A DNA stretch of 59,177 nucleotides from an uncultured virus (IMG/VR IMGVR_UViG_3300009419_000009) (lineage: Duplodnaviria > Heunggongvirae > Uroviricota > Caudoviricetes). Both the position numbers and the translations under genes were made by a program. Position 1 is the first letter of the stretch, and each line of letters starts with the position of its first letter. Positions 13,057 through 50,000 of the stretch are shown here, piece by piece. The notes under the pieces were generated by a model. It made no database searches, was not told where the DNA came from, and saw only the letters and a list, made by a program, of their open reading frames with translations. Location: positions 62,001 to 121,177 of the IMG/VR virus record IMGVR_UViG_3300009419_000009. One strand, given 5' to 3'.

Positions 13057-13785
13057 TTAAGCGTTGGCTAACACAACAGTAGGTAGTTCTACTACTGATG
13101 GGCCGTCTGCGGCTGATGGGTTTCCACCGCTGGTGCCTGCTTCTGCAGATCCAGTAATGGTCCATTTTGCAGTATCACCATCAGGAACATCAAATCCTGT
13201 GCCGCCGTCGGTGTTTTGTACCAATTCAACTTTGTTCTTGTTGATCTTCTTGACCCAGTATGTGCTGCTTTGGCTGTCTGTAGCAACAATGGCCATTTCG
13301 CCAGCGGCGCTTGGTGTAGCGGCCACTAGCTTGCAAACTGCGGTGCCGTCTTGCGATCTAACTCTAAAACGCTTGCTACCAACTTGTTTCAAAATGTCGT
13401 TGCCAGTGGTGCGGTTTGTGGAACTGATACGCACTTGCGGTGCCAGTGCATTAGCACGAGCAGTTGCAGCCGATACGGAAGTTAATACTGCTGTCAAAGT
13501 TAGTGTACCTTGTGTGCCTGTGTCTGCAGAGATAGTTGCTGATGTGTAGCCAGAACCAACTGTGCTAATGGACACGTTGCCAATTACACCGTTTGCAAAA
13601 GCATTGACAGTACCAACTGCTTGTGTACTACCTGCAATCTGCGGTGCAGAAATTGTTAGTGCATCACCTGTTGTGTAGCCAGATGAATTGTTAGTGCCAC
13701 CTAATGTGACACTGGAGATACCTTCACCGCCAATGTTGTCGGGGTTTGATTCACCAAAGAATTTTTTATTTAGAGGACGTCCCAT
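13057..13785 (-). CDS. Virion protein following gp23 (242 aa, MGRPLNKKFFG...), possible head decoration
   Basis: Start moved to ATG 13785 (AAGGAG at 13793-13798); GSGY-type repeat; own late promoter and terminator. Confidence 0.7.
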   Translation of the reverse strand: MGRPLNKKFFGESNPDNIGGEGISSVTLGGTNNSSGYTTGDALTISAPQIAGSTQAVGTVNAFANGVIGNVSISTVGSGYTSATISADTGTQGTLTLTAVLTSVSAATARANALAPQVRISSTNRTTGNDILKQVGSKRFRVRSQDGTAVCKLVAATPSAAGEMAIVATDSQSSTYWVKKINKNKVELVQNTDGGTGFDVPDGDTAKWTITGSAEAGTSGGNPSAADGPSVVELPTVVLANA

Positions 13786-13804
13786 TTGTTTTCTCCTTAA
13801 TATG

Positions 13805-13865
13805 ATTAGCGTTCTAGGCCTACGCGGTGGGTACCGCATAAGTTACTTGAGTGTCAAGTGAACAT
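13805..13865 (-). promoter_or_regulatory. Structured 5' leader (two adjacent hairpins)
   Basis: Hairpins at 13842-13863 and 13821-13840 between late promoter and RBS. Confidence 0.55.
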
Positions 13866-13867
13866 TA

Positions 13868-13875
13868 TATTTACC
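13868..13875 (-). promoter_or_regulatory. Late promoter GGTAAATA
   Basis: TAAATA core upstream of the structured leader. Confidence 0.7.
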
Positions 13876-13882
13876 TAATAGT

Positions 13883-13911
13883 TTGCTTTGTAGTTGTGTC
13901 TGCTATATAAT
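13883..13911 (+). promoter_or_regulatory. sigma70-type promoter TTGCTT-17-TATAAT
   Basis: -35 at 13883-13888, perfect -10 at 13906-13911, 17-nt spacer. Confidence 0.75.
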
Positions 13912-13916
13912 AGCTA

Positions 13917-13985
13917 CAGGTGCTAGTCAGACAGCATCCTGTTTAGTTGGTACCCGAGTGTAGAAATATGCTCGGGTATTTTTTT
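13917..13985 (+). ncRNA. Candidate ~68-nt small RNA
   Basis: Bounded by a sigma70 promoter and an intrinsic terminator; no ORF; 5' hairpin AGGTGCT...AGCATCCT. Confidence 0.65.
13951..13985 (+). terminator. Rho-independent terminator of the candidate sRNA
   Basis: 12-bp stem TACCCGAGTGTA/TATGCTCGGGTA (two G-U pairs), GAAA loop, then T7. Confidence 0.85.
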
Positions 13986-13990
13986 AGCCA

Positions 13991-14015
13991 ACAAAAAAGC
14001 GCCTTGCGGCGCTTT
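13991..14015 (-). terminator. Terminator of the head operon
   Basis: AAAGCGCC-GCAA-GGCGCTTTTTT after the gp23 stop. Confidence 0.9.
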
Positions 14016-14054
14016 CTTGCTCTTCCCATCCCTGAGTCGATTTTACTTTTGTGA

Positions 14055-15236
14055 TTACTGGAAAGACAAAGTACCAGAAGTGATACCAATCTTGCCCAGG
14101 TAGTCGCCAGCATTGCCAAGAGACGATGCTGTGTTGGTCAATTCTACATAACCATAACGTGTCATAAAGCCCACGACTGGTTCGAATGTAGCTGGATCCA
14201 GCACAACGCCAGAGCTCATTAGCGGTACGTATGGGCAATAGAACGCGGCAGCATCTGCCTCGCTAGAACCTTTGTAACCGATAAGAACTGCTGTGCCTGT
14301 GTTAGCATAGCTGTCAACGTAAACACGCATTGCGCCGTTCAATGTACCAACAAACTTGGTGTTTGTAGGTGCTTCGAAAGTGCCTTCTGTAGTGCGAGCA
14401 AAAGCAGAAGTTGTAGCAGACTGAAGAACTGTTAGAGCCTCAGCAGATACAACTGCCCAGTTTGCCGCGCCACGACGTGTACGCTGAGCGATCAAGTTAG
14501 CAGTACGGTTGATTAGAACTGCCAATGCGGCATGCTCGTCACCAACGAATGTAGCTGTACCAGAAACGCTTGACTGGTCATATGTGAATTCAGTTGCGGC
14601 CAAAGAACGTAGGCTAGCTAGGATTTCTTGGTCAATTTCAACTGTGATTTCTTGTGCAAGTGCGGCCATGATTTCTGCCTCAACATCCAAACCATGCATG
14701 GCTTGTGCGTCTTGAGCAGCTTCAAATGTCCAACGTGCTGACAACTTACGAGTCTTAGCTTCAACAACTTGTTTCAAGATTTGAACATTGATACGATTAC
14801 CTGGTACGCCTTCTAGTGTAGCTGTGTTGCTAGCTCTAGAAGTTGCGCTGTTACCGGAGTAAGCAGTAGCAATACGGAATGGGCTTAGAGCCTCATCACC
14901 GGCTGTTGCGCCATCACCGCTTGTGGTTGCGCTAACTGTGTCAGCGTAACGTACACGTAGTGTATGGATTTGTGCAACTGGACCTGTCATAGGTTGTACA
15001 CCAACGATTTCGTTAGCAATAACGGTTGGCATAACGCGACGGATCACTGGCAGAATCACGCGATTCAATGTAGCTACGTTGCTTGAAGCTGTAGCGCCAC
15101 CTGTTGCATTTTCTGACAGATACTTGCGGGTGTTCTCTAGGATTACACCCATTGTAGTTCTTTTAGAACCATTTAGGCCTTCTAACAGGGCATCTTTTGT
15201 TTCGCCCCAACGGCTCTCTAGTAGTGCGGTTGTCAT
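14055..15236 (-). CDS. gp23: Major capsid protein, T4 gp23 family (393 aa)
   Basis: RRVMPTVIANEIVGVQPMTGP, EAKTRKLSARWT.E.AQD..A.HGLDVE, GYKGSSEADAAAFYCPYVPL, F.P.VGFMTRYG. Confidence 0.97.
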   Translation of the reverse strand: MTTALLESRWGETKDALLEGLNGSKRTTMGVILENTRKYLSENATGGATASSNVATLNRVILPVIRRVMPTVIANEIVGVQPMTGPVAQIHTLRVRYADTVSATTSGDGATAGDEALSPFRIATAYSGNSATSRASNTATLEGVPGNRINVQILKQVVEAKTRKLSARWTFEAAQDAQAMHGLDVEAEIMAALAQEITVEIDQEILASLRSLAATEFTYDQSSVSGTATFVGDEHAALAVLINRTANLIAQRTRRGAANWAVVSAEALTVLQSATTSAFARTTEGTFEAPTNTKFVGTLNGAMRVYVDSYANTGTAVLIGYKGSSEADAAAFYCPYVPLMSSGVVLDPATFEPVVGFMTRYGYVELTNTASSLGNAGDYLGKIGITSGTLSFQ

Positions 15237-15263
15237 TTCTTTTTCCTTCTCCTGTTTAGGGTT

Positions 15264-16361
15264 TTACTTTAGCCCTGCTAAACGCTTGATTTCAATCACG
15301 TTAGTGAAATCTTCAGTGGCGCTGACCTTAGCAGTCTTATCACCAGTTACTGCCGAACGACCTTCGCTGAGCATAGCTTTTGGCTGCGCTTTAACTGGGG
15401 TGTTGTTCAACACGGCTGGAAGATACTTATCAAATGCTTGCTGAAGTTTGTCAGCTTGCACTGATTCAAGAAGTTCGCTCATGATTGAAGCTTTCTCCTT
15501 GTTCAAAGGCTTCAACAAGTTTACAAGGATTTCCTTGCGAGTTGTTGACTCTTTGATAATCTTAATTTCTTTTTCTTTACTTTCCACCAGTGCGGTTTTT
15601 TCTTCTGCCGCACGTGTAGCTTCTGCTAACTTCTGTGACTGAGTGTTCATTTCTACACGTAGTTTAGCAATCTCACGATTCTCATTGAGGTGTGTGACTG
15701 CAAACTCACTAGCAAAAGCTTCAAACAAACGACGACCAAACATGTTCTCGCGAGCAACTTGGATGTCTTCTTTGAGCTGAACCATTTCAGTTTGTAGATT
15801 ATTAGCAATAGCTTCCTTTACCAACTTGGCGCTACGTGTAACAAACTGACCTTTTAACTTGGTCAATTCTTGCTTGGCTTCTGACACCAAACGAACACGA
15901 GCTTCTACCACTGCTCTCTTATCTGTTTCAAATTCTTGAATTTCTTCGGCCAGAGCAGAAACAACAAACTTCTCAAGACGGCTTACGCTTTCTTGATAGT
16001 TTTTGCGATCTGCACGTAGTTCTTTCAATTCTTCGGCTAGCTTGCTAACCATGAACTGATCAAACTTGTTTGCGTTCTCAACCATGCGAGTTTGGAACTT
16101 CACACGATCTTCAGCAAGGGCACGTTTTTCTTCTGCGAACTCTTTAATTTCAGTAGAGAGAGCTTCGGTAACCATGTTGTCTAAGGCATCAACCATTACA
16201 CTTTTATCATGCTCGTAGCGTTGCGCAAATTCTTCACGCAACTCTGCACGTATAGTTTCACGTGCTTCGTGAAGCTTGGTTTCCCATGCTTCTGAAATAG
16301 CTTGATGGGTGTCTTCGTTAACAATACCGGCGTCAACCAGCGGTTTGATAGCATCAAACAT
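15264..16361 (-). CDS. gp22: Prohead scaffold/core protein, gp22-like (365 aa)
   Basis: E/K/A-rich coiled coil between protease and capsid; GRRLFEAFASE motif. Confidence 0.8.
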   Translation of the reverse strand: MFDAIKPLVDAGIVNEDTHQAISEAWETKLHEARETIRAELREEFAQRYEHDKSVMVDALDNMVTEALSTEIKEFAEEKRALAEDRVKFQTRMVENANKFDQFMVSKLAEELKELRADRKNYQESVSRLEKFVVSALAEEIQEFETDKRAVVEARVRLVSEAKQELTKLKGQFVTRSAKLVKEAIANNLQTEMVQLKEDIQVARENMFGRRLFEAFASEFAVTHLNENREIAKLRVEMNTQSQKLAEATRAAEEKTALVESKEKEIKIIKESTTRKEILVNLLKPLNKEKASIMSELLESVQADKLQQAFDKYLPAVLNNTPVKAQPKAMLSEGRSAVTGDKTAKVSATEDFTNVIEIKRLAGLK

Positions 16362-18013: not shown

Positions 18014-18107
18014 GAGAACTCCTCTTGGTATATGGCTGTTAAGTTATTTAAGATAACGGCTAAGATTTAGCCAGTTATGTGGATGTTTTTGAATAATTTG
18101 CAACTTT

Positions 18108-24400: not shown

Positions 24401-24830
24401 GATCGCTTGCGCGATCTATTGATTTCGCTATCGCTCATCAATATTGTTTTTTTCTTTACGCTCAAGCGAATTAAGTTTCATCTAGATTCTATGGTCACAC
24501 TTCGCCCTGGCCGGGCAAAGGTTAGCTTCATCTGAGTTCTGATAGCCACATAGCGTTACAACATTACAGAGGCGGTTGTCCGGTACCTCGAGTTGCGTCT
24601 TTATTACAACGGCGGGCTTGTACACATACGCTAACATACATACAAACCGTGTGCTATCGCTAGCACGTCTTTTTGCCTTTATTATCTTCAAACAATCAAA
24701 CCACAGCAATTTGCGATCTTCGTCCTGTAAAGGATAGTGATTGAGTACTCTGTACAGCGCAGAGAATTCCGTCCCTGTGATCCGAGATCCAGGTTTAGAG
24801 CACACGATGTTGGCCTGTGCTAGCCTTAAC
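24401..24830 (-). ncRNA. Candidate large structured non-coding RNA (~430 nt), class not recognised
   Basis: About nine hairpins; GNRA loops and G-U pairs favour the minus strand. Confidence 0.6.
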
Positions 24831-25404: not shown

Positions 25405-26421
25405 CTACCATTCGGTAGCATATTCTTTGTTTACAACCTGTTTAGAACACTTGGTTTTGCACTCTTGCCAGCGGAAAGTTTGGAATTCTGTAGTCCAAAA
25501 AACATCATCTAACACGTCTTTCAACGTGCGCTGAGTGAGGTCAAAGTAGCGACCTCGTTCCTGCCATTCTGCGTTATGTTCGTATCTATTTGCCACCCAA
25601 CAGCAAGGAAACAAGTGACCCTGCGAGTTTATATACACGCCCTTGTTGCCTACTGCACACAGTGGAATCACTGGTTTATCACGATATTCTGCTTGTGTTT
25701 TGTGCCACGCGGCAGTGTTTTCTGCATGCACACTCGCTGGCACACGATCGCGCAGTTGTTTAATAGTTCGCTCAAAACGTTGATTTTGAGCTATGTGTTC
25801 AGCTCGAGGTTGCAACACATCTGTTGGCCCGTATATTGGGTATACCTGTGCAAACTTGGTTGAACGTGTGATTTGTAAAAAATCAAATCCACGACTTGTG
25901 GCATGACGTTCAATTTTGTCCAAATGATCTTGATTGAATTCAAATGCTATAGCGGCCCAGGTCATTTGCACTGAACTGTGAGCTCTAAGCACATCAATAC
26001 CTTCCATGATACTGTCCCAATCAGAATTAGCCCTGTACTGGTTGTTGCTGATGTTGTCGTAGCCATCAATGCTAAAGTGTACATGATCACGATGTGTCAA
26101 CACATGAGCTAGACCGCGCCACCAGTCGGTGCTTTTGTAACTGCCATTGGTAATAATGACAATTTCAACATCAGCCAGGCTTTTCAAATAAGCAATGATA
26201 GATATCAAGTCATGTGCATAGATAGGGTCACCGTCGTCACCGCAGAATGTAATTTTACGCACTTGCTGTTCGACAAACTGCTGTGTGAAGTTTCGTTTGA
26301 AAAACTCTAGATCTAATTCTGTATTCACAAGTCCGTTGGGAACTTCTTGCCTGGCACAACGTGGGCAATGTAACGTACACTTGCTGGACACTTCAATGTG
26401 CCAATGCCACGTGGCTAGCAT
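25405..26421 (-). CDS. Radical SAM protein with C-terminal twitch/SPASM-like domain (338 aa)
   Basis: CTLHCPRC, GDDGDP, TNG, FSIDG; C...YINSQG.LFPCCW...C...C. Confidence 0.9.
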   Translation of the reverse strand: MLATWHWHIEVSSKCTLHCPRCARQEVPNGLVNTELDLEFFKRNFTQQFVEQQVRKITFCGDDGDPIYAHDLISIIAYLKSLADVEIVIITNGSYKSTDWWRGLAHVLTHRDHVHFSIDGYDNISNNQYRANSDWDSIMEGIDVLRAHSSVQMTWAAIAFEFNQDHLDKIERHATSRGFDFLQITRSTKFAQVYPIYGPTDVLQPRAEHIAQNQRFERTIKQLRDRVPASVHAENTAAWHKTQAEYRDKPVIPLCAVGNKGVYINSQGHLFPCCWVANRYEHNAEWQERGRYFDLTQRTLKDVLDDVFWTTEFQTFRWQECKTKCSKQVVNKEYATEW

Positions 26422-27320
26422 AATGCGGTGTCCTCTTGAAACTGACTTTCAAATCTTGTTTGGTCATTTGTGGTTGCACAAAACTTGGTGCATACAGGGT
26501 GTGGATTGTCTTTCCAGCTAGCAATCAGTGTAACAGGATCTGCTACTAATTGCTTGAGTCTTTTGTCCATGCGAAAAACTTCACTGCCTATAAAACAACA
26601 AGGCAGTATCTCGCCTGTGGCGGCCATGTAGATACTTTGTTCGCGCATGGCATGACAGTCCACAGGACCATCTGCTGTTACCGGCACAAAGTCCTTGGGT
26701 GGAGCAAGAAATTTAATTGGTCGCTCTTGAAAGCGTGAACTGACTTTGGTACGGAAACGCACAAAGCCCATCTTTCTAGCATGCTCTCTGCAGGTGTCAA
26801 CATGATGTTGATTGTGTTGGAACACCAGCATGTCCCAGTGTGCTCTACCGCCAGCTGAAATAAATGTTTCTGCATTGAGCATGATTCGATGCCACATCAC
26901 ACCTTGGCGATATATGTCATTGGTGCTGGCCATGCCGTCAATGCTGAATACACAGTAGTCTAGCTCACGGCTTAATAGCTTGCCCATGTCTAACCAAAAC
27001 AGTGTGTCACGTAGCGCACCATTGGTATTGAGTCCGATCACAATGTCAGGATTGACTTCACGGAACCACTGAAATATCTGCAGACATTCTCGCGCCGCAC
27101 ATGGATCACCAAAGTTACCACATGCAAATACCTTGCTTAGATTACGTACAAATTGTTCAGGAAATGTACGTTTAATAAGTGCAAGACCAACATCGTGATC
27201 CGTAGTGTACCCTGACTCGGGATCCATTCTAGCACATTGAGGACAGCTGGCTTGACAGCGAGTGGTTAGCTCAAGATGCAGAACTTGGATGTCTTCAAAC
27301 AATGTCGGTGTCTGTACCAT
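26415..27320 (-). CDS. Radical SAM protein with twitch/SPASM-like domain (301 aa)
   Basis: CQASCPQC, GNFGDP, TNG, FSIDG; C...IYM..TGEILPCCF...C...C. Confidence 0.9.
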   Translation of the reverse strand: MVQTPTLFEDIQVLHLELTTRCQASCPQCARMDPESGYTTDHDVGLALIKRTFPEQFVRNLSKVFACGNFGDPCAARECLQIFQWFREVNPDIVIGLNTNGALRDTLFWLDMGKLLSRELDYCVFSIDGMASTNDIYRQGVMWHRIMLNAETFISAGGRAHWDMLVFQHNQHHVDTCREHARKMGFVRFRTKVSSRFQERPIKFLAPPKDFVPVTADGPVDCHAMREQSIYMAATGEILPCCFIGSEVFRMDKRLKQLVADPVTLIASWKDNPHPVCTKFCATTNDQTRFESQFQEDTALC

Positions 27321-29064
27321 AACTTGTGAATCCGTTTTCTTTTGTGACTGTTAGCACGTTGTTTACTCGACTGGTCAGTTCGTCTTTGTGTGATACCAAC
27401 CAAACAGATTTATTACGATCACGTGACATCTTCTTGAGAATAGACAAGGCGGCTTCTACACCTGAACTGTCCATACCTGAGTCAACCACTTCGTCAATAA
27501 ACATCAAATTGATAGGCTGATACAAACTTTCCCACACATCACGGAACGCCCAGGACAATGACAGGATCAAACGATTGCGTTCGCCTCGGCTCAAGTTATC
27601 AAAGTCCAGCTCACGTCCTAGCTCTGTGATGTTCACTGTGAGATCGTTTTGGAATATCACAGTGTGCGGTAGTCCAATCTTGTCCAAGTAGTGACTCAGT
27701 CGTTGATTTAGATAAGTTAAATTTTGATCAATGATGCGTTTGCGCACATAACTGTCTTTGCTGGTCAAGAGCTTGAGCAAGAAGTCTTGATGATCACGCA
27801 AACTTACCAAGCGGTTCATTTCATCGTAATCAATTTCTTCTACTGCTTTGTTTTCCATTTCTGTAATTTGTTCAGCATAAGGATCTGCTTCGTCCTGTTT
27901 GGCTGTGATTTGACTCAATATATTGCCCAAGCTCGCACGATGTTCAAATGCATCTGCTTCTTTGTCGTAGAATGTTTCTGGAACTGGTCCAAGCTCGCCT
28001 AGTGCCTGTAGTGCATCAGTATGCTCCATCCACTGAGTATTTGTTGCCAGTGCTTGTAGTGCGGCTTCTTGCAGACTTTTACGTTTGTCAGCCAACACCT
28101 GCTCATGCTTTTCATCATGCATTTCCTGTCCACAAGCATAGCACTTGTGTTCTTCCAGTTGAGCAATTTCTGCTTTGAGCTTGGCAATGGTCTTGTTTTC
28201 TTTGGCTTCGTCAACTTCGCAACGTGCAATATATTTTTGTAAATCAGCACGATCCTTGACCAATTGAGTGTGCCGCACCAGATCTTGATGTGCTAGCAGT
28301 TCGGCTTCGATGTCAATCTTGCCCAGCTCGTCATAGGCTATTGCTAGCTTGTCAAGATCTTCTTGCTTTTTACGTAGCCACAAAGTTTGTCGTCGACGCA
28401 GATTTTCAATTTGATCTTCCATGCGTTTGTTGGCATCACGCACAGCATTGATACGATATTCTTCCTTGGTTATAGATTCTTTGCCAAGTTTGATTTGTTC
28501 TTTGAGATTTTCTGCTTTTTCACTCAGTTGTGTAACACCCAACAGTTGCTCAATCAACACACGCTGATCCGCGGCTCTTAGACTCAGGAAAGGTTCAGTG
28601 TAGGTGTTCAGTGCAACAATATGTTTGAACATTTCATGGCTCATGCCCAACAGTTGTTCAATTGCATGCTGTGTTTCGCGACTGTCACCTTGGCTTTCGT
28701 CTTTGACTTCTTGTTCTTGGTCGCCAATAAAAAACTTCATGATGTTGGGCTTGCGTCCACGTTCAACTCTATAGGTTTGTCCGTTGTTTTCAAACTCAAG
28801 ATTGACTATCATGGCTTTGCCATTGGTCTTGTTAATCAAGTTTTCTTTGCGAATACGAGTAAGAGCTTCACCGTACATGGCATAACTCAGGGCATTGATA
28901 ATTGTAGTTTTGCCTGTGCCATTACGTGCGCCAGTATCATCTCCGCCTAGATCCAAGTTTTGTCCTAGTACCAAGGTCAAATCATTTCTATTGAAATTCA
29001 CAGCCTGAGTTACATTACCCACGCTCATGAAGTTTTTAACAGTTAGAGTTTTTATTTTGAGCAT
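27295..29064 (-). CDS. gp46: Recombination endonuclease ATPase subunit (Rad50/SbcC-like, 589 aa)
   Basis: KNFMS.G, Walker A GARNGTGKT, coiled coil with CYAC zinc hook, LSRGE signature, FIDE Walker B, VSH. Confidence 0.95.
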   Translation of the reverse strand: MLKIKTLTVKNFMSVGNVTQAVNFNRNDLTLVLGQNLDLGGDDTGARNGTGKTTIINALSYAMYGEALTRIRKENLINKTNGKAMIVNLEFENNGQTYRVERGRKPNIMKFFIGDQEQEVKDESQGDSRETQHAIEQLLGMSHEMFKHIVALNTYTEPFLSLRAADQRVLIEQLLGVTQLSEKAENLKEQIKLGKESITKEEYRINAVRDANKRMEDQIENLRRRQTLWLRKKQEDLDKLAIAYDELGKIDIEAELLAHQDLVRHTQLVKDRADLQKYIARCEVDEAKENKTIAKLKAEIAQLEEHKCYACGQEMHDEKHEQVLADKRKSLQEAALQALATNTQWMEHTDALQALGELGPVPETFYDKEADAFEHRASLGNILSQITAKQDEADPYAEQITEMENKAVEEIDYDEMNRLVSLRDHQDFLLKLLTSKDSYVRKRIIDQNLTYLNQRLSHYLDKIGLPHTVIFQNDLTVNITELGRELDFDNLSRGERNRLILSLSWAFRDVWESLYQPINLMFIDEVVDSGMDSSGVEAALSILKKMSRDRNKSVWLVSHKDELTSRVNNVLTVTKENGFTSYGTDTDIV

Positions 29065-30011
29065 TTTTGTGTACAGATTAAATTAGGTGATTGATTGAAA
29101 CTTGCCGGATATCTTTTTTGCCACAGGTCACCATTGATTATGTCCTCTAATGTGCTAGTGTAGAGATTTATTTGGTCAAAGTCAATAGCCAGCGTGTTCC
29201 TAAAATGATAGTTGACCACTTCATAGGTTAGTTTTTGTTGTGTGGCCTTGTGCCACCCCATGAGATAACAGCAGGGCCATACTGTGCCATCAGCATAGAT
29301 AGATATCCATCCTTCGCGCTGACTTTCGCATGAAATTTTTCCAGTTGTGGGTTTTATGAAATCTTTTTCAACAAAAGTCACTGTGGCTGGCACAAGTTCT
29401 AGATTGGCAGGCTGTAGGTGTGCCTGCGACTGGTCTTTCAAGTTGAATCTATCTTGCCGCAGTACAAAAAACTTTTCAAAATTCAGTTGCTCACTCAACT
29501 GCTTACAAGACTCTATTTGATGTGCATTGTGTTCAAACAAAATAAACTGCCAATGTGCATGGCCACCACCTTGCACAAATGCCTGGGCATTGTCAATAAT
29601 CTTTTGCCAATTGGTATTGGTTCTGTAGATTTCGTGTGTATCTTCAAGTCCGTCAATGCCAAATACCACACTGTGATTGTGTTTGCTCAATAGTTTGCCC
29701 AGTTGTTGCCACCAGCTGGTACTGCGCAAACTGCCATTGGTGTGTATGTTGATCTCAGCGGTGGTATTGCAAACAACCCACTCAATGATATTGAAAATAT
29801 CTGGGTGCATGATGTTGTCACCCGTGGTACCATTAAAATTGATTGTTTTGAGATTTTGCCATACATGCAACGGAACCTGTTTGACAACGTGATGCCAGTC
29901 CAGCGTGTCATTGGTACGCATGCCCGGGTGTCGCAAACACTGGACACATCCTGCATTGCAGTTGTTTATGGTTTCAACGTCTAACACAACTATGTCGTTA
30001 ACAGTCAGCAT
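29052..30011 (-). CDS. Radical SAM protein with twitch/SPASM-like domain (319 aa)
   Basis: CNAGCVQC, GTTGD, TNGS, FGIDG; C...ISIYADGTVWPCCY...C...C. Confidence 0.9.
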   Translation of the reverse strand: MLTVNDIVVLDVETINNCNAGCVQCLRHPGMRTNDTLDWHHVVKQVPLHVWQNLKTINFNGTTGDNIMHPDIFNIIEWVVCNTTAEINIHTNGSLRSTSWWQQLGKLLSKHNHSVVFGIDGLEDTHEIYRTNTNWQKIIDNAQAFVQGGGHAHWQFILFEHNAHQIESCKQLSEQLNFEKFFVLRQDRFNLKDQSQAHLQPANLELVPATVTFVEKDFIKPTTGKISCESQREGWISIYADGTVWPCCYLMGWHKATQQKLTYEVVNYHFRNTLAIDFDQINLYTSTLEDIINGDLWQKRYPASFNQSPNLICTQKCSK

Positions 30012-31122
30012 TTAGTCGTTCAACCAGTTCTGGAAAAGACTCTGCAACACTGTTGCCACGACGGAGGTCTAGTTTTTGGCAATAGTCAAGTATGTCCTGC
30101 GCGGCACTGTAATGCGGCGTGTGCAGTTGTGTTTGTATTTGTTTGATTGAAGGATTATCAATGCCGTTGAGTCGACTGTGTATCCAGGCTCGAGTTTTTA
30201 CCGGAGCTCGATGCATGTTAAGAATCAATGGATCCTGCAACTTGTTGTAGAACACTTCAAGATCATTTGTTTTGCAAAATTCTTCTACTTCTGCAAGATA
30301 ACCCACATTGAATATACTGGTCGTGTGCAAGATCAGCAGTCTAACTTTTTGTAGCTTTTTATATTGTTGAATATTTTTAACCAAAGTATCCCAACTGGCC
30401 GGAAATCTTAAATATTCAAATCTACTACCAATGCCATCCATGCTGATGTTTATATCAACTCGTTTGAAGTGCTGCCAGTATTCCAATTGCTCATCAGGCA
30501 TGCGTGTACCATTGGTGGTGTACAACAAGGTAATGTGTTTGGAATGTCCAGATTCAACCAAGTACTTGAATAAATCAGCTTGTTCTTGTTCCAACATCAT
30601 GAACGGTTCACCGCCAATAAATTCTATCATACCAATACCTGCGGCACGGTCTCTCAAACTCTGCCAGACTGGATCAGTTTTTTTCAGCATGATAGGACGA
30701 CTGGCTGGATCACCAAACTTTTTGTTTTCGCTAATCCAGCCAGTACTTACATCATCATTACAGGTAACACAGCGAAGATTGCAGTGATTTCCCAATCTTA
30801 CATAGTAACGAACAAACTCATCCTGTACAACATCCAATGCTGGCTTGTACTTGTAGTCAAACACTTGACTGTAGAGTTGATTGTCTCGCAATCGCTTACT
30901 GGAATATCCTTGTGATTCTTCCTCCCAGCAATGCACACAATCTTTGACAGGAACTCCGTCTAGTAATTGTTTTTTAAGCGTGGCAAGTTCAGTACTGTTG
31001 GCATATTCATTGATACTTGCAAATCCGTGGGACGAGGCGTAGACACAACAAGGGCTATAACCTTGCCCAAATTGATAGTTTATAGAAATCCATGGATTAA
31101 CGCAAAAGGTTTTTTCATTCAT
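29998..31122 (-). CDS. Radical SAM protein with N-terminal Cys-rich (twitch-like) domain (374 aa)
   Basis: FCVNPW...PCC...CVHCW then CNLRCVTC, GGEPF, TNGT, SMDG. Confidence 0.9.
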   Translation of the reverse strand: MNEKTFCVNPWISINYQFGQGYSPCCVYASSHGFASINEYANSTELATLKKQLLDGVPVKDCVHCWEEESQGYSSKRLRDNQLYSQVFDYKYKPALDVVQDEFVRYYVRLGNHCNLRCVTCNDDVSTGWISENKKFGDPASRPIMLKKTDPVWQSLRDRAAGIGMIEFIGGEPFMMLEQEQADLFKYLVESGHSKHITLLYTTNGTRMPDEQLEYWQHFKRVDINISMDGIGSRFEYLRFPASWDTLVKNIQQYKKLQKVRLLILHTTSIFNVGYLAEVEEFCKTNDLEVFYNKLQDPLILNMHRAPVKTRAWIHSRLNGIDNPSIKQIQTQLHTPHYSAAQDILDYCQKLDLRRGNSVAESFPELVERLNADC

Positions 31123-32181: not shown

Positions 32182-33069
32182 CTACTCTTCGTGACCGCCG
32201 CCTCCACTGCTGGCCATTTGACGTGTGTAACTTGGGTTCAAGTTGTTCATTTGCAAGATGTCGTCCCTTAGATTCTGGTTGCGTTTTTCAATGTTAAGCA
32301 CACGAGTGAATGAGTTGGTAATAGCTGCCGTGTAATAAGCAAATGGATTTTGACTCTTGCTTTCATCAAACTGCAAACCAATCTGACTCAACTGTAGCAG
32401 AGCTTGTGAGCGCATTTCATCATTGTATGTGTAGCCACGCCAGTTAGATCTTGTGGCATAGCGTTCACACAGTTTCATAAACATGTGAGCCAGCTTGTTG
32501 GTCATTGCTCCGTGGTCTCTAGAATAGCATCCTGTGTCTGGATCGCCTTTCCAATGACTGATGCCCACTACCACTTGCAACAGGTTGTCTTCTGTGTCAC
32601 GAGCAAGTTTTATGTGCTTGAACGGCGGAAAATTAACCTTGACAAATTTGGTAGGCTTGGCCGGCTCGTCAGCATCGTACTCGGTGTCTGCGGAGTCTTC
32701 ATCTTCTTCAATCACAGGTTCAGCTTTGCCACGTTTTTTGCTGACTTTTACAATTTCTTGTGTGGGCACATGTTCCCATGTCATGACACGAAACACTACT
32801 TCGTCTTCGGGAATCTTGGTATGCTTGATCAAAAAATCTTCTAGTTTGGCCTTGGTTCCGCCCAGCAAGGCTTCTTCTTGGGCAATTTTAGCCAGGCGCT
32901 CGGCACGATTTTTCTTTGCTTCGGTTATGTCTTTTTTAGTAATTTTTCGCCCGTCAGTGATGATCATGTCGTAATCAGCATCCAGTGGGTTTTTATACCA
33001 GCAGTAGGTGTTCTTACTCTTGTGTATCTCTTTCAAGATATCTTTATTGTTGAGATAATTGTGCTTCAT
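32182..33069 (-). CDS. gp55: Late transcription sigma factor, T4 gp55 family (295 aa)
   Basis: NYLNNKD.L, NWRGYTYNDEM, FDESKS.NPFAYYT....NSF.R.L..EK; start at ATG 33069 with TAAGGA RBS. Confidence 0.92.
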   Translation of the reverse strand: MKHNYLNNKDILKEIHKSKNTYCWYKNPLDADYDMIITDGRKITKKDITEAKKNRAERLAKIAQEEALLGGTKAKLEDFLIKHTKIPEDEVVFRVMTWEHVPTQEIVKVSKKRGKAEPVIEEDEDSADTEYDADEPAKPTKFVKVNFPPFKHIKLARDTEDNLLQVVVGISHWKGDPDTGCYSRDHGAMTNKLAHMFMKLCERYATRSNWRGYTYNDEMRSQALLQLSQIGLQFDESKSQNPFAYYTAAITNSFTRVLNIEKRNQNLRDDILQMNNLNPSYTRQMASSGGGGHEE

Positions 33070-33100
33070 GTTTAGCAGTATCCTTATAAAACTACCACTT

Positions 33101-43400: not shown

Positions 43401-44010
43401 AAATGTGTATTTCCAATACCGCCATTTAAGCCCAGCCAATCGCAGAATTGATCCAAGCCCCAACAACATTGTGGACTTGTATATTCTAACCAAACAATAT
43501 GCAGATGATTATTCAATTTGGATTAGAGACACCAGTGGTAAAATTGCTGAGCCTGAAAAAACTGATGTTGAACAACTTCGTCTTGCATATGGAGAATTGG
43601 AAAATTTCAAAACTATCAGTGATACAATTATCTACAATCCTGCAAGATTCAAGCCAGTGTTTGGCGCCAAGGCAAACGAAAGCCTGCGGGCAAAGTTCAA
43701 AGTTGTAAAAAACAGTGAAGCTGTTATAAGTGACAACGACATAAAGGTAGCAGTAATTACTGCAATCAACAAGTATTTTGATACTGCCAACTGGGACTTT
43801 GGTGAAAGTTTTTATTTTAGTGAACTTAGCGCATATCTACATGCCGAGCTCAACACAAGGATTAGTAGTATTATTATTGTTCCTAAAAACACACAACAAA
43901 GTTTTGGTAATCTTTATCAAATCAACGCAGAACCAGATGAAATTATTATCAGCTGTGCAACGCCGGATGACGTTGAAATTATCACAGCTATCACAGCAGT
44001 ACAACTATAA
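40477..44010 (+). CDS. gp6: Baseplate wedge subunit gp6 (1177 aa)
   Basis: YDFETLR, FNDFIESSE, ENFIDTAERRDSV..LA....Y.PKR, FGDG, ES...IK..AP..Y.TQNRMITGEDY, FGE.FYFSEL. Confidence 0.9.
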   Translation: MAATTRQTNLLVQQDWKKVYQSFQNADFQSYDFETLRKTMIDYLRTYYPEDFNDFIESSEYIALIDLIAFLGQSLAFRADLNARENFIDTAERRDSVLKLARLVSYVPKRNVSSSGLLRIEAISTTEDIVDSNGINLANFPINWNDPGNDNWLEQFNLLLNSALVDSQVVGNPGNNQIIGGIATDEYSLNILNNVIPTFNFESQVNGTVMRFEVVSPTSVNQEYLYEAEPRPRSLFNLLYRNDNLGNDSTNSGWFLHFKQGELRNLDFTLDQKLPNRVVNVQVDNINNDDVWLYQLDDAGNYTQLWEKVDSVNGVNVVYNTSATRTLYQVNTRVGDQIDLVFGDGAFADIPSGRFRLFYRVSNALDYKISPSEMQNILIPFTYVSRQNRSESLTVRASLYYTVNNASGRESLAEIKNKAPQQYYTQNRMITGEDYNILPFTKFNSILKIKSTNRSSSGISRYLDTVDVTGKYSSTNIFAEDGILYRNETIDSVEFIPRTSGDIIGQINEVLNNQLLVDNYVAFSQFIYAKLRRFTTTDVEINGSIFTSAWQQMTVSTNQSTGFLTLNSSYLATINPATGNQSANTLALPALKVGQASSNSLRYVKPGSIIKFRASGSNSLVAKYFNAANEIVTGFPSVTGDKLFLYATVVNVAGDGTGNGVLTVSDSGPITLSTFVPTGAYIEEIIPKIYNIIPQDVLRSAVTLISSKKNFGLRLDQVLGTWNIIQPQNLKLKQDDSVLINTDGYTAEYSDTNSGDVSSASLDSSWIISFVSGTFGYNIYYRQINYIFESAQETKFYFDPRVRVYDSKSATTLSDQIKVLRSNSVPDGNTALYEDKTWFIYKMIVDPDGRENTSKILVKFADSNRDGVPDNPDIFEELVNPAVNPTNKYVYFERTFNTNSFVQYKPIDSILVSTLYGSQGEIVQAYNLYEDGQIFYATDENKFYDLTVTSVRGIETRSLTQSNNGDKYLWLFGRTNVYFQYRHLSPANRRIDPSPNNIVDLYILTKQYADDYSIWIRDTSGKIAEPEKTDVEQLRLAYGELENFKTISDTIIYNPARFKPVFGAKANESLRAKFKVVKNSEAVISDNDIKVAVITAINKYFDTANWDFGESFYFSELSAYLHAELNTRISSIIIVPKNTQQSFGNLYQINAEPDEIIISCATPDDVEIITAITAVQL

Positions 44011-44019
44011 AATGACCGT

Positions 44020-47000
44020 ATGAGCATCAAAAGCATAAATCTTTTACCCGAAGTATTTCGTACAGAGCCTAACCGCAAGTTTCTGGCAGCAACCATTGAT
44101 CAGTTGATCAGTGAAGGCGATCAAAGTGTAAGATTAGATTCCTACATTGGTCGTAAAAATGCTCCCACTTGGAAAACTGGTGACACCTATGTGAAAGAAA
44201 CCAATAGCGATAGACAAAATTATCAGCTTGAAACATCAGTCATTGTTGATGGTGGACAAGGCCGCACAGATTTTTACAGCAGTTATCTAGACCTATTGCA
44301 ACAAATTGCATACTATGGTGGTATTACCACAGACCATAGCAGATTATTTGCCAATCAGAGTTATACATTTGATGGATGTTTTGATGTTGATAAATTTGTA
44401 AACTTCAACAATTATCTATGGCTTCCAAATGGCCCACCAGAGATTACTATCACGGCTGGCAATCAAGACATTGCATTAGAATACAGTGTTGTTCGCAATC
44501 TCAATGCACGTGGATATCAGTTTACCGAGTATGGAGACAACAGAAATCCCATTATTACATTGGTAAAAGGTCAGTCTTACAAATTCTTAATCAACCAAAC
44601 AGGAAATCCTTTTTGGATTCAAACAGCCGCTGGTGTATCAGGCACACTAGGGCCTGTTGCTGAACAGTTGAACAGACAGATACTGGGACTAAGCAATAAC
44701 GGAATTGATTCAGGCATACTTGAATTCAATGTGCCACTAGGTGATGCACAAGACGTACAGGTCACTGCTGTGTCTGCAGCCACAGTGGACTTTGCTACCA
44801 CTGCCAGCTACAGCAAAATTCAAAGTTATTTGGTAAATCAACTGGCCAAACAAGGCGGCATTGACGGAGTAAGTCAAGGACTGAATGGAAAAACCCTTGT
44901 GTTTGCAAATGCAGATGTGGACAACGAACTGTGGAAAGATGCCGGCAATTTTGATTTTGACAAGTTTGACGAAACACCATTTGAATATGGCGAACTGGTG
45001 CCAGGCGAAAAACGTCGCTGGGTGTTCCGCATTCGTACAATTGATGTAGGAAACAATCGCCAAATTATAAAACTTGATCCTATCACTGAAGTATTACCTG
45101 GCCAGAAAGTCTATGTAAAAGCCGGACAAAGATATTCCAACGTTGAATTATTGTTAAACAACAGTGGGTTCTATGAAACTATAGATCCTATCACTGCACC
45201 GTTGGACACACTGTACTATCAAGACAATTCAGAGCCTGGCTTCTTTGGCATCATACGTTTGGTCAATCCAGGCACAGAAACCATCAACATTGACAATGAC
45301 ATCATTGGAACAGAAAACTATACCAGCCCTAATCAAGTTGTATTGACCAATGGCATGCATATCAAGTTTGATAACACTGCTACTCCAGCAAGATATGCAA
45401 ACAACAACTATATTGTTGAAGGTGTTGGCACAGCAATTAAACTAATCAACGTTGGTAATTTCACTGTGCCAGAACAATACGCAGTTGACAGCGGATTAGC
45501 GACTCCGGACTACATCACTATCAATCGTGCCAGCAAAGATCTCAATGCATGGAGCCGTAGCAATCGCTGGTTCCATATAAGCACCATTGAAGACGCCGCC
45601 AAATATAGAGAAGATCCAACACTGTTGGATCTATCAATGGTTCAGCGTGGCAAACGCCCAATTATTGAGTTTGATCCAAACATCTATTTGTTTGACTATG
45701 GCCGTACATCCAAGAGCCCAGTGGACATTATTGATTTTACAATAACCAATGCTTTCCAAGACGTTGAAGGTCAAGAGTACTATACAGTACGCATGCCTAA
45801 CGGAATTGTTCGTCAGCTGACACCAGGTGTTCGAGTAATTTTTGCAGCCGACGATGATCTTGAAGTGCGCCGTAGAATATATCGAGTGGATTTTATCACA
45901 ACATCAACTGGTAACAGAATTCACTTGGTAAGCCAAAACACACAAGATTTACCTGCATACGAAGTTGCTGGTGTAACTATTACCAGCAACTTGTCTTATA
46001 ATTTTATACCAACTGTTACTTTTGCCAAGCCATTGCCAGGTATCGGCACACGAGTTGCACAAGGCAATGTGGTACTTAAAAATAGTGGAATTGAAAGCAT
46101 TGATATTGCTTACGGTGGTGTCAACTTTATTGCTGATCCCTATATTAAAATCAACAGCGACTACATTGATCAAGTTCAAACAGAAATTAACTATCGCACA
46201 TTCAAACAGATAGATTATGTTAGAATTGATTCTGCTGGTACCGGCTATACAACTACAACTCCTAACATCAGCATTAGCAACCCAAATCAATATTGGGCAA
46301 CAGTAACAAATGTGAGTCTTGGCACATCAGGTTTGACATTTGAAGTGGCAGCAGGTCCATTAATTAATCCTCCGACCACTGGTGTGATTCAAGTTGACGG
46401 ATCTGGCAATGTGGTTGCTACATTTGGCAATATTGGACTTGGGTATTACCAAGCAAACGTGAGTGCAAGCATCAGCGCCCCAACTGCACCTGCAGGCACA
46501 GTACCAGTTGTAAACAATGTTTATTTGTATGCAAATGGAGCAATTAAATCTATTAGATTAAGCAGTTATGGATCCGGATACCTAACTGCGCCTACTATTA
46601 CATTCACTGGCGCAAACACCTACACTGCTTCAGTAACTACAGTTGGTCGAGTTACAACATCTGCCACATTGTGGGATTTCCTAACACCGGGATATCAAAT
46701 TATTGCCAATGGTATCATTGGTGGCACAATCGTTTCTGCAATTGACAATGAAGCAAATTTAATTACAATCAATGCGCCAGCTGTGTCTGCAAATCTAGAA
46801 GCTGCCACTCCATTAACTGGAGTAAGCACAGTTTCAGTTGGTGATTTGTGGACCTTCAAAGCCAATGCAACTGCTGGCACATTTGCAACTGCCACAGCAA
46901 CACAATTGGCCAGCAAATCAGTCAAAGTCAACGATACCAGCATGTTAGATGTTGGAATGGTTATAAGTGGCGGTATTGACCCAGTATTGATTTCTGATAT

Positions 47001-50000
47001 TCGTATTGATGTTGTTCCAACAAGAATTATTACTGCGTCTAACCACGGATTTGTTGACAAAGACCTTGTCTACATACGAAATATTGTAGGCACAGTAGAA
47101 CTAAACTTTTCTCGATACTATGTCAAGCGCATTAGTGAAAATGCAATTGACTTGTATGCAAGCAGTGACTTGTCAGACGCATCAGCGCAAGACTCTCGTA
47201 ACTTTACAGATTATCTAAGTGGCGGACAGATAACTGCGTACACCATTGACTATGCAACTACTAGAGTAACAAAAGTATTGAGCGAAACTGAATTTGAAGT
47301 TAATCGTGAAATTAGTATTCTTAACGGAACCAAACTAGTGTTTGGTGGTGTGCCAGCACAGTCTGTTGCTCGCAGTGATGGTAACGCAATCTATAACATC
47401 AGCATTACGGAACCTGGCAGTGGATATACCACGGTTCCAAACGTAACAATTGAATCTAGCCTTGGCAATCAAGCAGTTGCATCCGCTATTACAAATGATA
47501 ATATCATTAATTATATCCGTATTGTTGATCCTGGTACAGGATACACAGTGACGTCGGCTACCACAGCCGACATTATCAGTGAAGTAGAAGTTTTAACTTC
47601 GGCAGTTTCTACCTACGGATCAACAACATTGTATTTTGACAATGCCGACGATTTGCTTCCTGTACAAACAGGATGGTTGGCATTTTTAGTATCAACCATT
47701 AATGGAGAAGAAATTCTCACAGACTTTGGACAAGAGCCATATGCGGCAACTGATACCACAGGACCAAATACAAACACGTTCCAGTCATTCATGGACGTGA
47801 GTAAAACTACTGCCATTGTTCGATCAGTTATCAATGTTGACAGTGATCAAATTATTCTAAGCGGTCCAATTAATGCTCAGGACAGCGACGGCGAGTTGAT
47901 TGACCTCCCAGCTGGGTCACGTATCGTGTTCACTGCCCAGAATAGATTTTTTACCACAGAAGGTGTAGGAAGTAGCGCAAGATTTAACGGCCATACAAAA
48001 ACTGGATTTATTAGTGTTAATGAATTGGTTGACGAAACTGTCATGGCACTAGATAATGTAAATGGTGTCCAGCCAGGCATGTTGGTTGGAGATCTGGCCG
48101 GGTTACTGCCTGCAGGTATTCAAGTCCGCACAGTTGATGCATATACCAGAAGAATTACACTAAACAATTCTGTTACCCTTCCGTCGCTGACGCAGGTAAC
48201 ATTCAGTGATTTTGTACAAGCAACACCAGCTGTGGCACCTGCAGAAATTAGCAGTATCACCATTACTGATCCAGGACTGGGTTATGTGCATGCACCTGAG
48301 ATAATCATACAGGCGCTGGTGCCTGTGGTAGAATTAATTGGTGCCTGCACCGGAAGTGATCAATTGGCCACGTACCTGGATCCAATCACATTAGATCCAG
48401 TGCTTTATCAATCTGGAAACGTAATTATTGTTGATAGCTATGATGGTGTAGTGATTGACAGCAAGTTGACCAGTAACTATAATAATCAAGGCGTAGGTGT
48501 AACCACTGGTGCAGATCGACCAACAGTTGTGGCACTGGTATTAGAACAAACAGCCAGCGCAGTGTTTGAACCAAGAATTGTAATTGATAAAAAACAGTCA
48601 GAGTTCAACGACATCATTATTACATTCACACAAGCCGCTGAAGGTGTGGCACAGATTGTTCAATTCAATAATGCAATTGATTATCAAGATGACACACCAG
48701 AAACATATGATGTTGACGACACTGTTGTTGTCAACATTCCTGCCAATCAGGAACAAACAACAACAAATGTGATAGCATACAATCAATTTTATTTTGATGG
48801 TATTGCTTGGTCACCAAGTCAACAAAAACAAGATACAAATCAAGAACCATTGTATGATGCATTTGATACCAATGGGGATAGTGCCGGTGACACATCAGTG
48901 TACCAGGGAACTAAATTTATTGGAACTAGAATTTTTGGTTACAAGTTGGGTGCTGGAAAAAGCGACAATGTATTGAATTTTCCATTGAGTTATAAGAATT
49001 TTGAAAACGTTGGTGATATTGAATTTAGTAATTATTTCCAGACTGACTCGTTCAACTTCTTGGACGGATTTGCTGAAACAAATACTCCTATCAGTAACTT
49101 TGTTCTAAAACAACAAACAGAATCTGGCAATGTACAATTGAGAAATATTTGGACGCCAATTGGAACTGACAGCAAACAGTACCAATTGATTTCTCATGAA
49201 TTTAACGGAACTACCAATTACTTTGAATTGGATGTAAAAGAAGAGATCAGTCAAGAAATTCCTTACCTCAAAGTATATGTAAACAACACTCGTTTATTAG
49301 AAACGCAATACACTGTTGAGCAATCTGGTGCAAGAACCGCAGTGGTGATTCCTGCTAGTTCGTTGGTCGTTGGACAGCAAATAACAATCAAAGTATACAG
49401 TAAACAGCAAAGTCTATTGGGTCATTATCAAACTCCGGTGAACCTAGATACCAATCCGCTGAATAGCAATTTTGAAAGCCTGACCCTAGGACAAATTAGA
49501 AATCATCTAGTAACCAAAGTAGACAATCATTATGGCATTGTTGGACCAGCTCTTGGCAAAAACAATCTACGAGATCTGTACAATAAAAATTGGCAAGGAA
49601 GTATTCTCCAACACGCAAGTCCAGTGAGTCTAGCAAGTTTGTTCTTGGTAGATCAAGACCTAAACATTATACAAGCCGTTGAGTTTGCACAAAAAGAATA
49701 CACCAAGTTCAAGAACAAATTCATTGACATGACTTCTAGACTGCAAATTGATACATTGGATATTCCAGGAAGTGTAGATCTAATATTGAAGTCATTGATG
49801 TCAGGCAAGAGTCCGGCAAGCCCATGGTATGACAGCGACATGGTGCCTTACGGTAACAAGTTCCGTAAAGTAACAAAATTGCCAATCCTGAACATTAGAC
49901 AACGAACATATCTAATTCCTAGTGCATTTGATTTGTCAACAATCTCTCGACAGTCGGTATTAATATACATTAGAGACTCTGCAACTCGACAGCACCGCCA

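Follow-up and report, generated by a model that had tools for sequence, protein, structure and literature searches.

Behind the major capsid gene gp23 of an uncultured jumbo phage lies a small RNA gene that is real, conserved and self-contained, and its predicted product, a trans-acting RNA, on balance likely represses translation of gp23 and of a distant early gene of 108 residues by base pairing. The window, i.e., the whole stretch of 59,177 nucleotides analysed here, is part of a virus record (G000; 121 kb, 35% complete by rating) whose genes for portal, protease, capsid, late sigma factor and baseplate are T4-like. The cultured capsids closest to the window's gp23 are those of Sinorhizobium phage Phosso (69% identity), PA5oct and Paride (67.5%) and GAP32 (65%); from these, and from the 355-kb length of G001, a complete relative that carries the small RNA, we infer that the window comes from a jumbo phage, as yet uncultured, in the GAP32/PA5oct group. 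The RNA runs bearing the region are labelled freshwater or lake.

A sequence-only reading had noted that positions 13937-13946, in the small RNA, are identical to 15250-15259, and this holds: the window has exactly two copies of the 10-mer TCCTGTTTAG, at these two places and both on the plus strand. Its complement stands at -23 to -14 of gp23 and overlaps AGGAG, as that reading had also said, covering AGGA.

Table 1. Features of the gp23 and small RNA locus, and the proposed gp55 site (window coordinates)
Feature	Position	Strand	Basis or remark
Freshwater-2 RNA (13783-13860) and TAAATA box (13868-13873)	13783..13873	-	Rfam RF02980, 60 bits
Sigma70-type promoter TTGCTT, 17-bp spacer, TATAAT	13883..13911	+	Sequence; conserved spacing
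Predicted small RNA, about 67 nt	13919..13985	+	Start inferred from -10 box and invariant G
5' hairpin GGUGCU / AGCAUC, loop AGUCAGAC (13925-13932)	13919..13938	+	Fold, covariation
Invariant seed AUCCUGUUUAG	13936..13946	+	13937-13946 complementary to gp23 leader
Intrinsic terminator of small RNA, stem and U7	13949..13985	+	5 of 10 pairs changed on both sides
gp23 terminator, converging on small RNA terminator	13992..14019	-	RNA-library contigs end at 14036 in 3 of 4 runs (weak hint)
Major capsid protein gp23, 393 aa	14055..15236	-	phrog_138, E 2e-100
A-rich spacer GAAGGAAAAAGAA with second Shine-Dalgarno-like AAGGA (15244-15248)	15237..15249	-	Outside the 10-bp helix
Predicted target CUAAACAGGA, -23 to -14 of gp23	15250..15259	-	Complementary to seed
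365-aa gene upstream of gp23, phrog_10922, unknown function	15264..16361	-	Scaffold by position
Nearest TAAATA late-promoter-like box upstream of gp23	18045..18050	-	Three genes away
Proposed gp55 site	33069..33075	-	Present in window, not conserved, rejected

A self-contained small RNA gene

The gene stands alone with its own promoter and intrinsic terminator, as expected of a trans-acting base-pairing sRNA. Its promoter was overlooked by a consensus scan because the -35 element matches at only three of six positions; the TTG-N20-TATAAT spacing is nevertheless fixed in 19 distinct copies, and the spacer sequence varies. A middle promoter of the T4 MotA type was rejected on the spacing known for the MotA box: the candidate box lies 15 bp from TATAAT, and a spacing of 17, which suits sigma70, is conserved.

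The predicted fold has a z-score of -4.4, with none of 200 shuffled sequences equally stable. Part of the seed was thought to lie in the 5' stem, and U13937 and C13938 indeed do so; the remaining eight seed bases are predicted to be mostly unpaired. Features of the Hfq type include the U7 tail and the U-rich GUUUAGUU, along with the A-rich spacer on the gp23 leader, and the U-tail and spacer together suggest the host's Hfq; a search of five phage records found a phage Hfq in none of them.

The sole start codon on the RNA strand within 13919-13985 falls inside the terminator, and no ORF of at least 30 aa begins in this interval. A small ORF on the opposite strand was dismissed as not conserved between subtypes. 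Contigs of four RNA libraries are near-identical across the upstream gene and gp23 and none extends over 13868-13988, where contigs of this kind cannot show a 67-nt RNA. A search of Rfam 15 over 13919-13985 gave no family at or above its gathering threshold, and blastn of the small RNA against 50,697 phage records gave no match. The best sub-threshold Rfam match was NsiR1 (RF02399; 27.5 bits vs a 39-bit cut-off), likewise a short RNA with a hairpin and a terminator; the score comes mostly from the terminator.

Conservation of the small RNA

Pattern scans yielded 19 distinct promoter-plus-RNA sequences, all of which keep the sigma70-type promoter, 5' hairpin, seed and terminator. Every copy with enough flanking sequence lies behind gp23 (capsid identity 84-100%), and all copies belong to a single clade of GAP32/PA5oct-like jumbo phages. 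It was absent from all 80 other gp23 loci, and a pattern search of the nearly complete non-carriers G012, G072 and G014 returned none. As to copies elsewhere, G001 alone among 44 records matched strongly, alongside three weak matches with E of 0.01-0.08; in G012 this search scored 84 of 266 candidates.

Over the 19 sequences, 98.4% of alignment cells are paired and 8 of 16 pairs have changed on both sides, a covariation score reached by none of 500 shuffles, with 36-45% paired in sliding controls; because the alignment was fitted to the structure model, these pairing counts lean towards that model. In subtype 2 (L252, L327, L332 and L450) the 5' stem is different, the loop UCAGAC and AUCCUGUUUAG are retained, and the seed is wholly unpaired. 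When the search left the seed free, it was unchanged in 11 of 11, 9 of 9 and 12 of 12 true copies (three scans), and five pattern scans revealed no seed variant in a true copy, which also held when two seed positions were left free; matches lacking the layout of the RNA were dropped as chance (28 of 39, 9 of 18 and 7 of 19 in three scans).

Exchanges between G-U and A-U are present in both stems, and these point to RNA rather than to an element acting as DNA or in cis. The latter could be a direct repeat around gp23, a transcription-start operator, or the leader or attenuator of a methyltransferase gene, and we regard it as very unlikely. The two 10-mers are, to be sure, direct repeats flanking gp23, and L096, L101, L106 and L115 have a methyltransferase gene after the terminator; but no downstream gene is present in the window and in most copies, the distance to gp23 varies with inserted genes, and the element does not hold the constant position upstream of a regulated gene that a methyltransferase riboswitch or attenuator would have.

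Pairing with the gp23 leader

By itself the match to gp23 is weak, and its conservation carries the case. Matches to the 10-mer with at most one mismatch are not enriched in the window (6 seen vs 3.5 expected), and of 2000 shuffles of a 30-nt RNA, 13.8% have a 10-base Watson-Crick complement in the start region of some gene among the 139 called in G000, vs 0.1% for the gp23 start region specifically. In the window, the 10-bp helix is worth -13.8 kcal/mol, or a modest -6.6 or so after the opening of both RNAs, and gp23 ranks second of 139 as a partner of the small RNA in G000 and sixth of 1643 in G001. In each of the 16 carriers a second, weaker helix is predicted at the start codon of gp23, and it requires the small RNA's own hairpin to open.

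Among 65 distinct gp23 genes with a CCCTAA-n-AGGA leader, 60 were kept (five non-carriers with less than 300 bases downstream were dropped), and CUAAACAGGA with AC at its variable positions is found in 16 of 16 carriers vs 2 of 44 non-carriers (L016 and L455). The carrier L140, whose leader is cut, stands outside the 16, and its visible part agrees. A leader-first scan, covering 120 of about 430 stretches, found the small RNA at three of four loci with AC and at none of 41 others with enough downstream DNA. The nucleotide tree places the carriers in a single clade (support 0.93), joining two groups that a quick version of the protein tree had split, and since they are a single clade, the association between carrier and site is a single evolutionary event and counts once.

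What weighs most is the rate of change within that clade. The variable bases of the gp23 site show 0 changes over 1.48 units of carrier tree vs 20 over 5.59 elsewhere, i.e., 0 vs 5.3 expected in carriers (P about 0.005), and the two flanks show 7 and 5 changes in carriers vs 7.7 and 9.0 expected. The conservation in relatives on which the sequence-only reading had staked its pairing is therefore borne out, both in presence and in rate. The compensatory changes that it had looked to are found in no copy, because the seed never varies; and it counts against the gp23 case that a different target, by constraining the seed, would keep it invariant in any event. In the predicted CCU-N-AGG mini-hairpin the variable bases make up the loop, which would explain both their drift in phages that lack the RNA and their freeze in those that have it. 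Across six carrier records, whose median protein identity to G000 is 51-75%, no orthologue except gp23 has a long helix that is conserved, and in 8 partial carrier records gp23 is the only start with CTAAAC.?AGGA. The seed is conserved, accessible and complementary to a target that does not overlap its gene, as in other trans-acting sRNAs.

The target begins 5 nt past the stop of the 365-aa upstream gene, spans the AGGA of the distal AGGAG (-17 to -13), not the second site AAGGA (-12 to -8), and includes a predicted CCU-AAAC-AGG mini-hairpin. This geometry leaves room for an opposite effect, in which the small RNA would raise capsid output by opening the CCU/AGG mini-hairpin, by steering ribosomes to the proximal AAGGA, or by shielding the message from cleavage. 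The helix ends 1 nt before the proximal site, which is found in 16 of 16 carriers vs 29 of 44 non-carriers, and the AGG of the target is predicted to be 60-73% paired in the free leader. Activation is nonetheless distinctly unlikely in our view: the covered AGGAG binds the anti-Shine-Dalgarno motif better than the proximal AAGGA (-7.4 vs -5.7) and is the only Shine-Dalgarno-type site in 15 of 44 non-carriers, and pairing this near a start codon usually blocks 30S loading. That the RNA blocks premature capsid translation, as was originally supposed, is plausible.

A predicted partner in a distant early gene

In the complete relative G001, a gene of 108 residues is predicted to be a stronger partner than gp23. 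Its start (G001:49618), about 190 kb from the small RNA, is the best of 1643 G001 starts with a Shine-Dalgarno-like motif, with a pairing energy of -14.8 vs -9.7 kcal/mol for gp23. The leader, AACUAAAC-U-AGGA-GUAUGU-AUGUCUGAC, would pair with small RNA bases 8-30 such that the seed lies on the ribosome site and the loop on the start codon, and both invariant segments of the RNA are used. The helix is bulged and pairs 23 nt, and the evidence at the DNA level comes from one carrier, G001. Because the gene has its own TTGACA-17-TACAAT promoter and terminator, it is likely to be early.

With target opening counted, this pairing is better than 60 of 60 shuffles, and its raw hybrid energy is matched by 6 of 60; the two-site motif is expected 0.08 times by chance. 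Helices of 8+8 bases in G001 compare with 3-5 bases in five orthologous leaders (three from non-carriers, two of unknown status). The codons read by the loop give an MSD start, which occurs in 83 of the 93 closest homologues and in none of the next 27, homologues being counted whatever their small-RNA status. The window's small RNA has a chance partner at -17.6 in the non-carrier G012, better than its -15.1 on the 108-aa candidate; energy by itself is therefore no proof.

The G000 record stops short of that region and does not include the gene. The contig that encodes one homologue with an MSDK start (P0066) measures 371,055 nt. This is also the length of the contig from which L123 derives, and the gp23 of L123 is 100% identical to that of the window; from this match we infer that the window's phage has the gene. 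The protein gave no Pfam hit, no PHROG below E 0.001 and no match among cultured phages; its model has a pLDDT of 76, BFVD returned only uncharacterised phage proteins, and the best PDB match reached Z 3.4. It ends in a Lys/Ala-rich tail and has no known family or fold. A paralogue of the candidate, 40% identical, is encoded at G001:329235-329516.

If this early gene were the sole real target, the gp23 match would be a relic of the RNA's origin in an ancestral phage, perhaps through inverted duplication of the gp23 leader. The early gene alone would account for both invariant segments and for the GUU after the seed, all carriers fall in a single clade, and subtype 2, read on its antisense strand, resembles a shortened gp23 leader plus start (CUAAACAGGA-UUU-AUGACA). 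We think this account unlikely, however, since two variable gp23-site bases stayed fixed over 1.48 substitutions per site while their neighbours changed, and since the helix is a perfect 10 bp on gp23 and bulged on the early gene.

A role directed at the host is a further possible reading. Known phage sRNAs, PreS and VpdS, act on host messages (PMC12197685), an invariant seed fits a slowly evolving host target, and an anti-Shine-Dalgarno-like seed (UCCU) might meet phage leaders as a side effect. It is improbable that host RNAs are the main targets, given that the gp23 site on the phage side is itself frozen and that the motif stands at two phage starts in G001 and at none in the non-carrier G012.

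Other candidate partners

The shorter match TGTTTAG, previously pointed out next to the gp55 start, is present and includes the A of the AUG, with 9 of 10 bases matching the seed at 33066-33075 and seven contiguous pairs. As a target, gp55 fails: the leaders of both carrier orthologues, G001 and G002, are without the site, and the predicted energy is -5.4 kcal/mol, rank 18 of 139 in G000. That gp55 is also targeted, delaying the late programme, is consequently extremely unlikely in spite of the 9 of 10 matches across its start in the window.

Two further candidates were set aside. A gp32-like gene tops the G000 ranking at -9.6 through a long broken duplex with no long helix, and pairing of the loop with the start of a 1035-aa gene (AUGUCUGAU) is kept in none of three orthologues. 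Scanning the whole genome by raw hybrid energy gave mostly noise. At G001:351641 (+), a 541-aa gene has CTAAACGAGGA in its leader, the third CTAAAC.?AGGA start, and is a possible third partner.

Relation to known RNAs

The small RNA appears to work like a trans-encoded base-pairing sRNA, and it belongs to no Rfam family. With the Hfq-type sRNAs of this kind from bacteria and temperate phages, such as PreS (lambda), VpdS (VP882), 24B_1 and DicF (PMC12197685), it shares its own promoter, a short seed and a U-rich stretch before an intrinsic terminator, as well as, by prediction, short pairing at translation starts and several targets. Unlike these, it is encoded by a jumbo phage that is T4-like and has a late sigma factor, and its predicted targets are the phage's own capsid gene and an early gene; in the main text of the review PMC12197685 the words "capsid" and "jumbo" each occur 0 times.

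The cis-antisense RNAs of phages, including sar (P22), OOP and aQ (lambda), PAK_P4as15 and STnc6030 (on the BTP1 tailspike), are described there as lowering expression of the phage's own genes, STnc6030 and PAK_P4as15 doing so on late genes (PMC12197685). Whereas RNAs of the sar/OOP type overlap their targets, the small RNA is predicted to pair 1.3 kb and about 190 kb away, over 10 and 23 bases; it ends at 13985, gp23 ends at 14055 and the target lies at 15250-15259, so the two do not overlap. CisR, a Vibrio cholerae sRNA, pairs with the phage structural-gene message cep and, with Hfq, lowers phage output (PMC13250501), but it is host-encoded and acts on a filamentous phage, whereas the small RNA is encoded by the phage.

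From the same phage group as the window, Pseudomonas phage PA5oct makes the abundant ncRNA001-004 (236-619 nt), to which the sections of PMC7318152 that describe them assign no function. They use host polymerase and TTGAC/TATAATA promoters and, by the coordinates in that paper, none lies beside the capsid gene, unlike the small RNA. The literature searched held no description of the small RNA; four supplementary files of PMC10690425 are without a match, and its other files may list the motif.

Proposed mechanism

In the mechanism that we propose, host sigma70 polymerase would make the small RNA from early in infection, its promoter being read by host polymerase as is reported for PA5oct (PMC7318152). 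The GUUU of the seed would first pair with the AAAC loop in the gp23 leader; the helix would then extend to 10 bp across the distal Shine-Dalgarno site and impede 30S loading, probably with assistance from host Hfq. gp23 is the fourth gene after the TAAATA box at 18045, which we take, from T4 biology, to be a late promoter. On the capsid message the small RNA might absorb leaky transcripts and set a threshold; or it might adjust the level of capsid relative to that of the scaffold and protease, which come from one late transcript with it. At the early gene, the seed together with the loop would mask the ribosome site and start codon, limiting the protein to a pulse.

A more speculative extension, which we hold as tentative and rather doubtful, is that the small RNA serves as a timer, for which the early message, through 23 paired bases, and the capsid message, through 10, compete such that capsid synthesis is coupled to decay of the early transcript. 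No such timer circuit was found for any jumbo phage in the literature searched. In T4-like phages, timing is attributed chiefly to promoters and sigma factors, and base pairing of the kind proposed, if true, would add a post-transcriptional layer and supply the first function for a non-coding RNA of a jumbo phage; the class of mechanism is well known, and the family is limited to one clade.

Surroundings of the locus

The site behind gp23 takes many different inserts. In L096, L101, L106 and L115, a methyltransferase gene of 230-242 aa lies between the small RNA and gp23 (PF08241 for L101 and L106), and in L016 / L233 an endonuclease-like gene, with an HNH-type motif recognised by eye, follows the gp23 terminator and is succeeded by a second terminator of the usual type. 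L002 / L231 and L243 have another insert between the gp23 terminator and freshwater-2, consisting of TTGACT-17-TATAAT on the small RNA's strand and then a hairpin; it is identical in two phages with different gp23 leaders, is without the seed, and is possibly a second small RNA. The freshwater-2 RNA leads the gene after gp23, and its TAAATA box and the small RNA promoter are arranged back to back. A conserved GGGAUGGGAAG, at 14020-14032 of the window, follows the gp23 stop and precedes the gp23 terminator; it occurs in many relatives with and without the small RNA.

Farther along the window, four radical SAM genes are interleaved with the gp46 and gp47 nuclease genes at 25405-31122 (-), and a Polynucleobacter-1 RNA (RF01718, 120.5 bits) lies at 24690-24825 (-). 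The last 15 kb or so (44000-59177), where a different genetic code, an assembly join or DNA of foreign origin may be involved, has no ORF above 130 aa under table 11, and the remainder of the window is dense.
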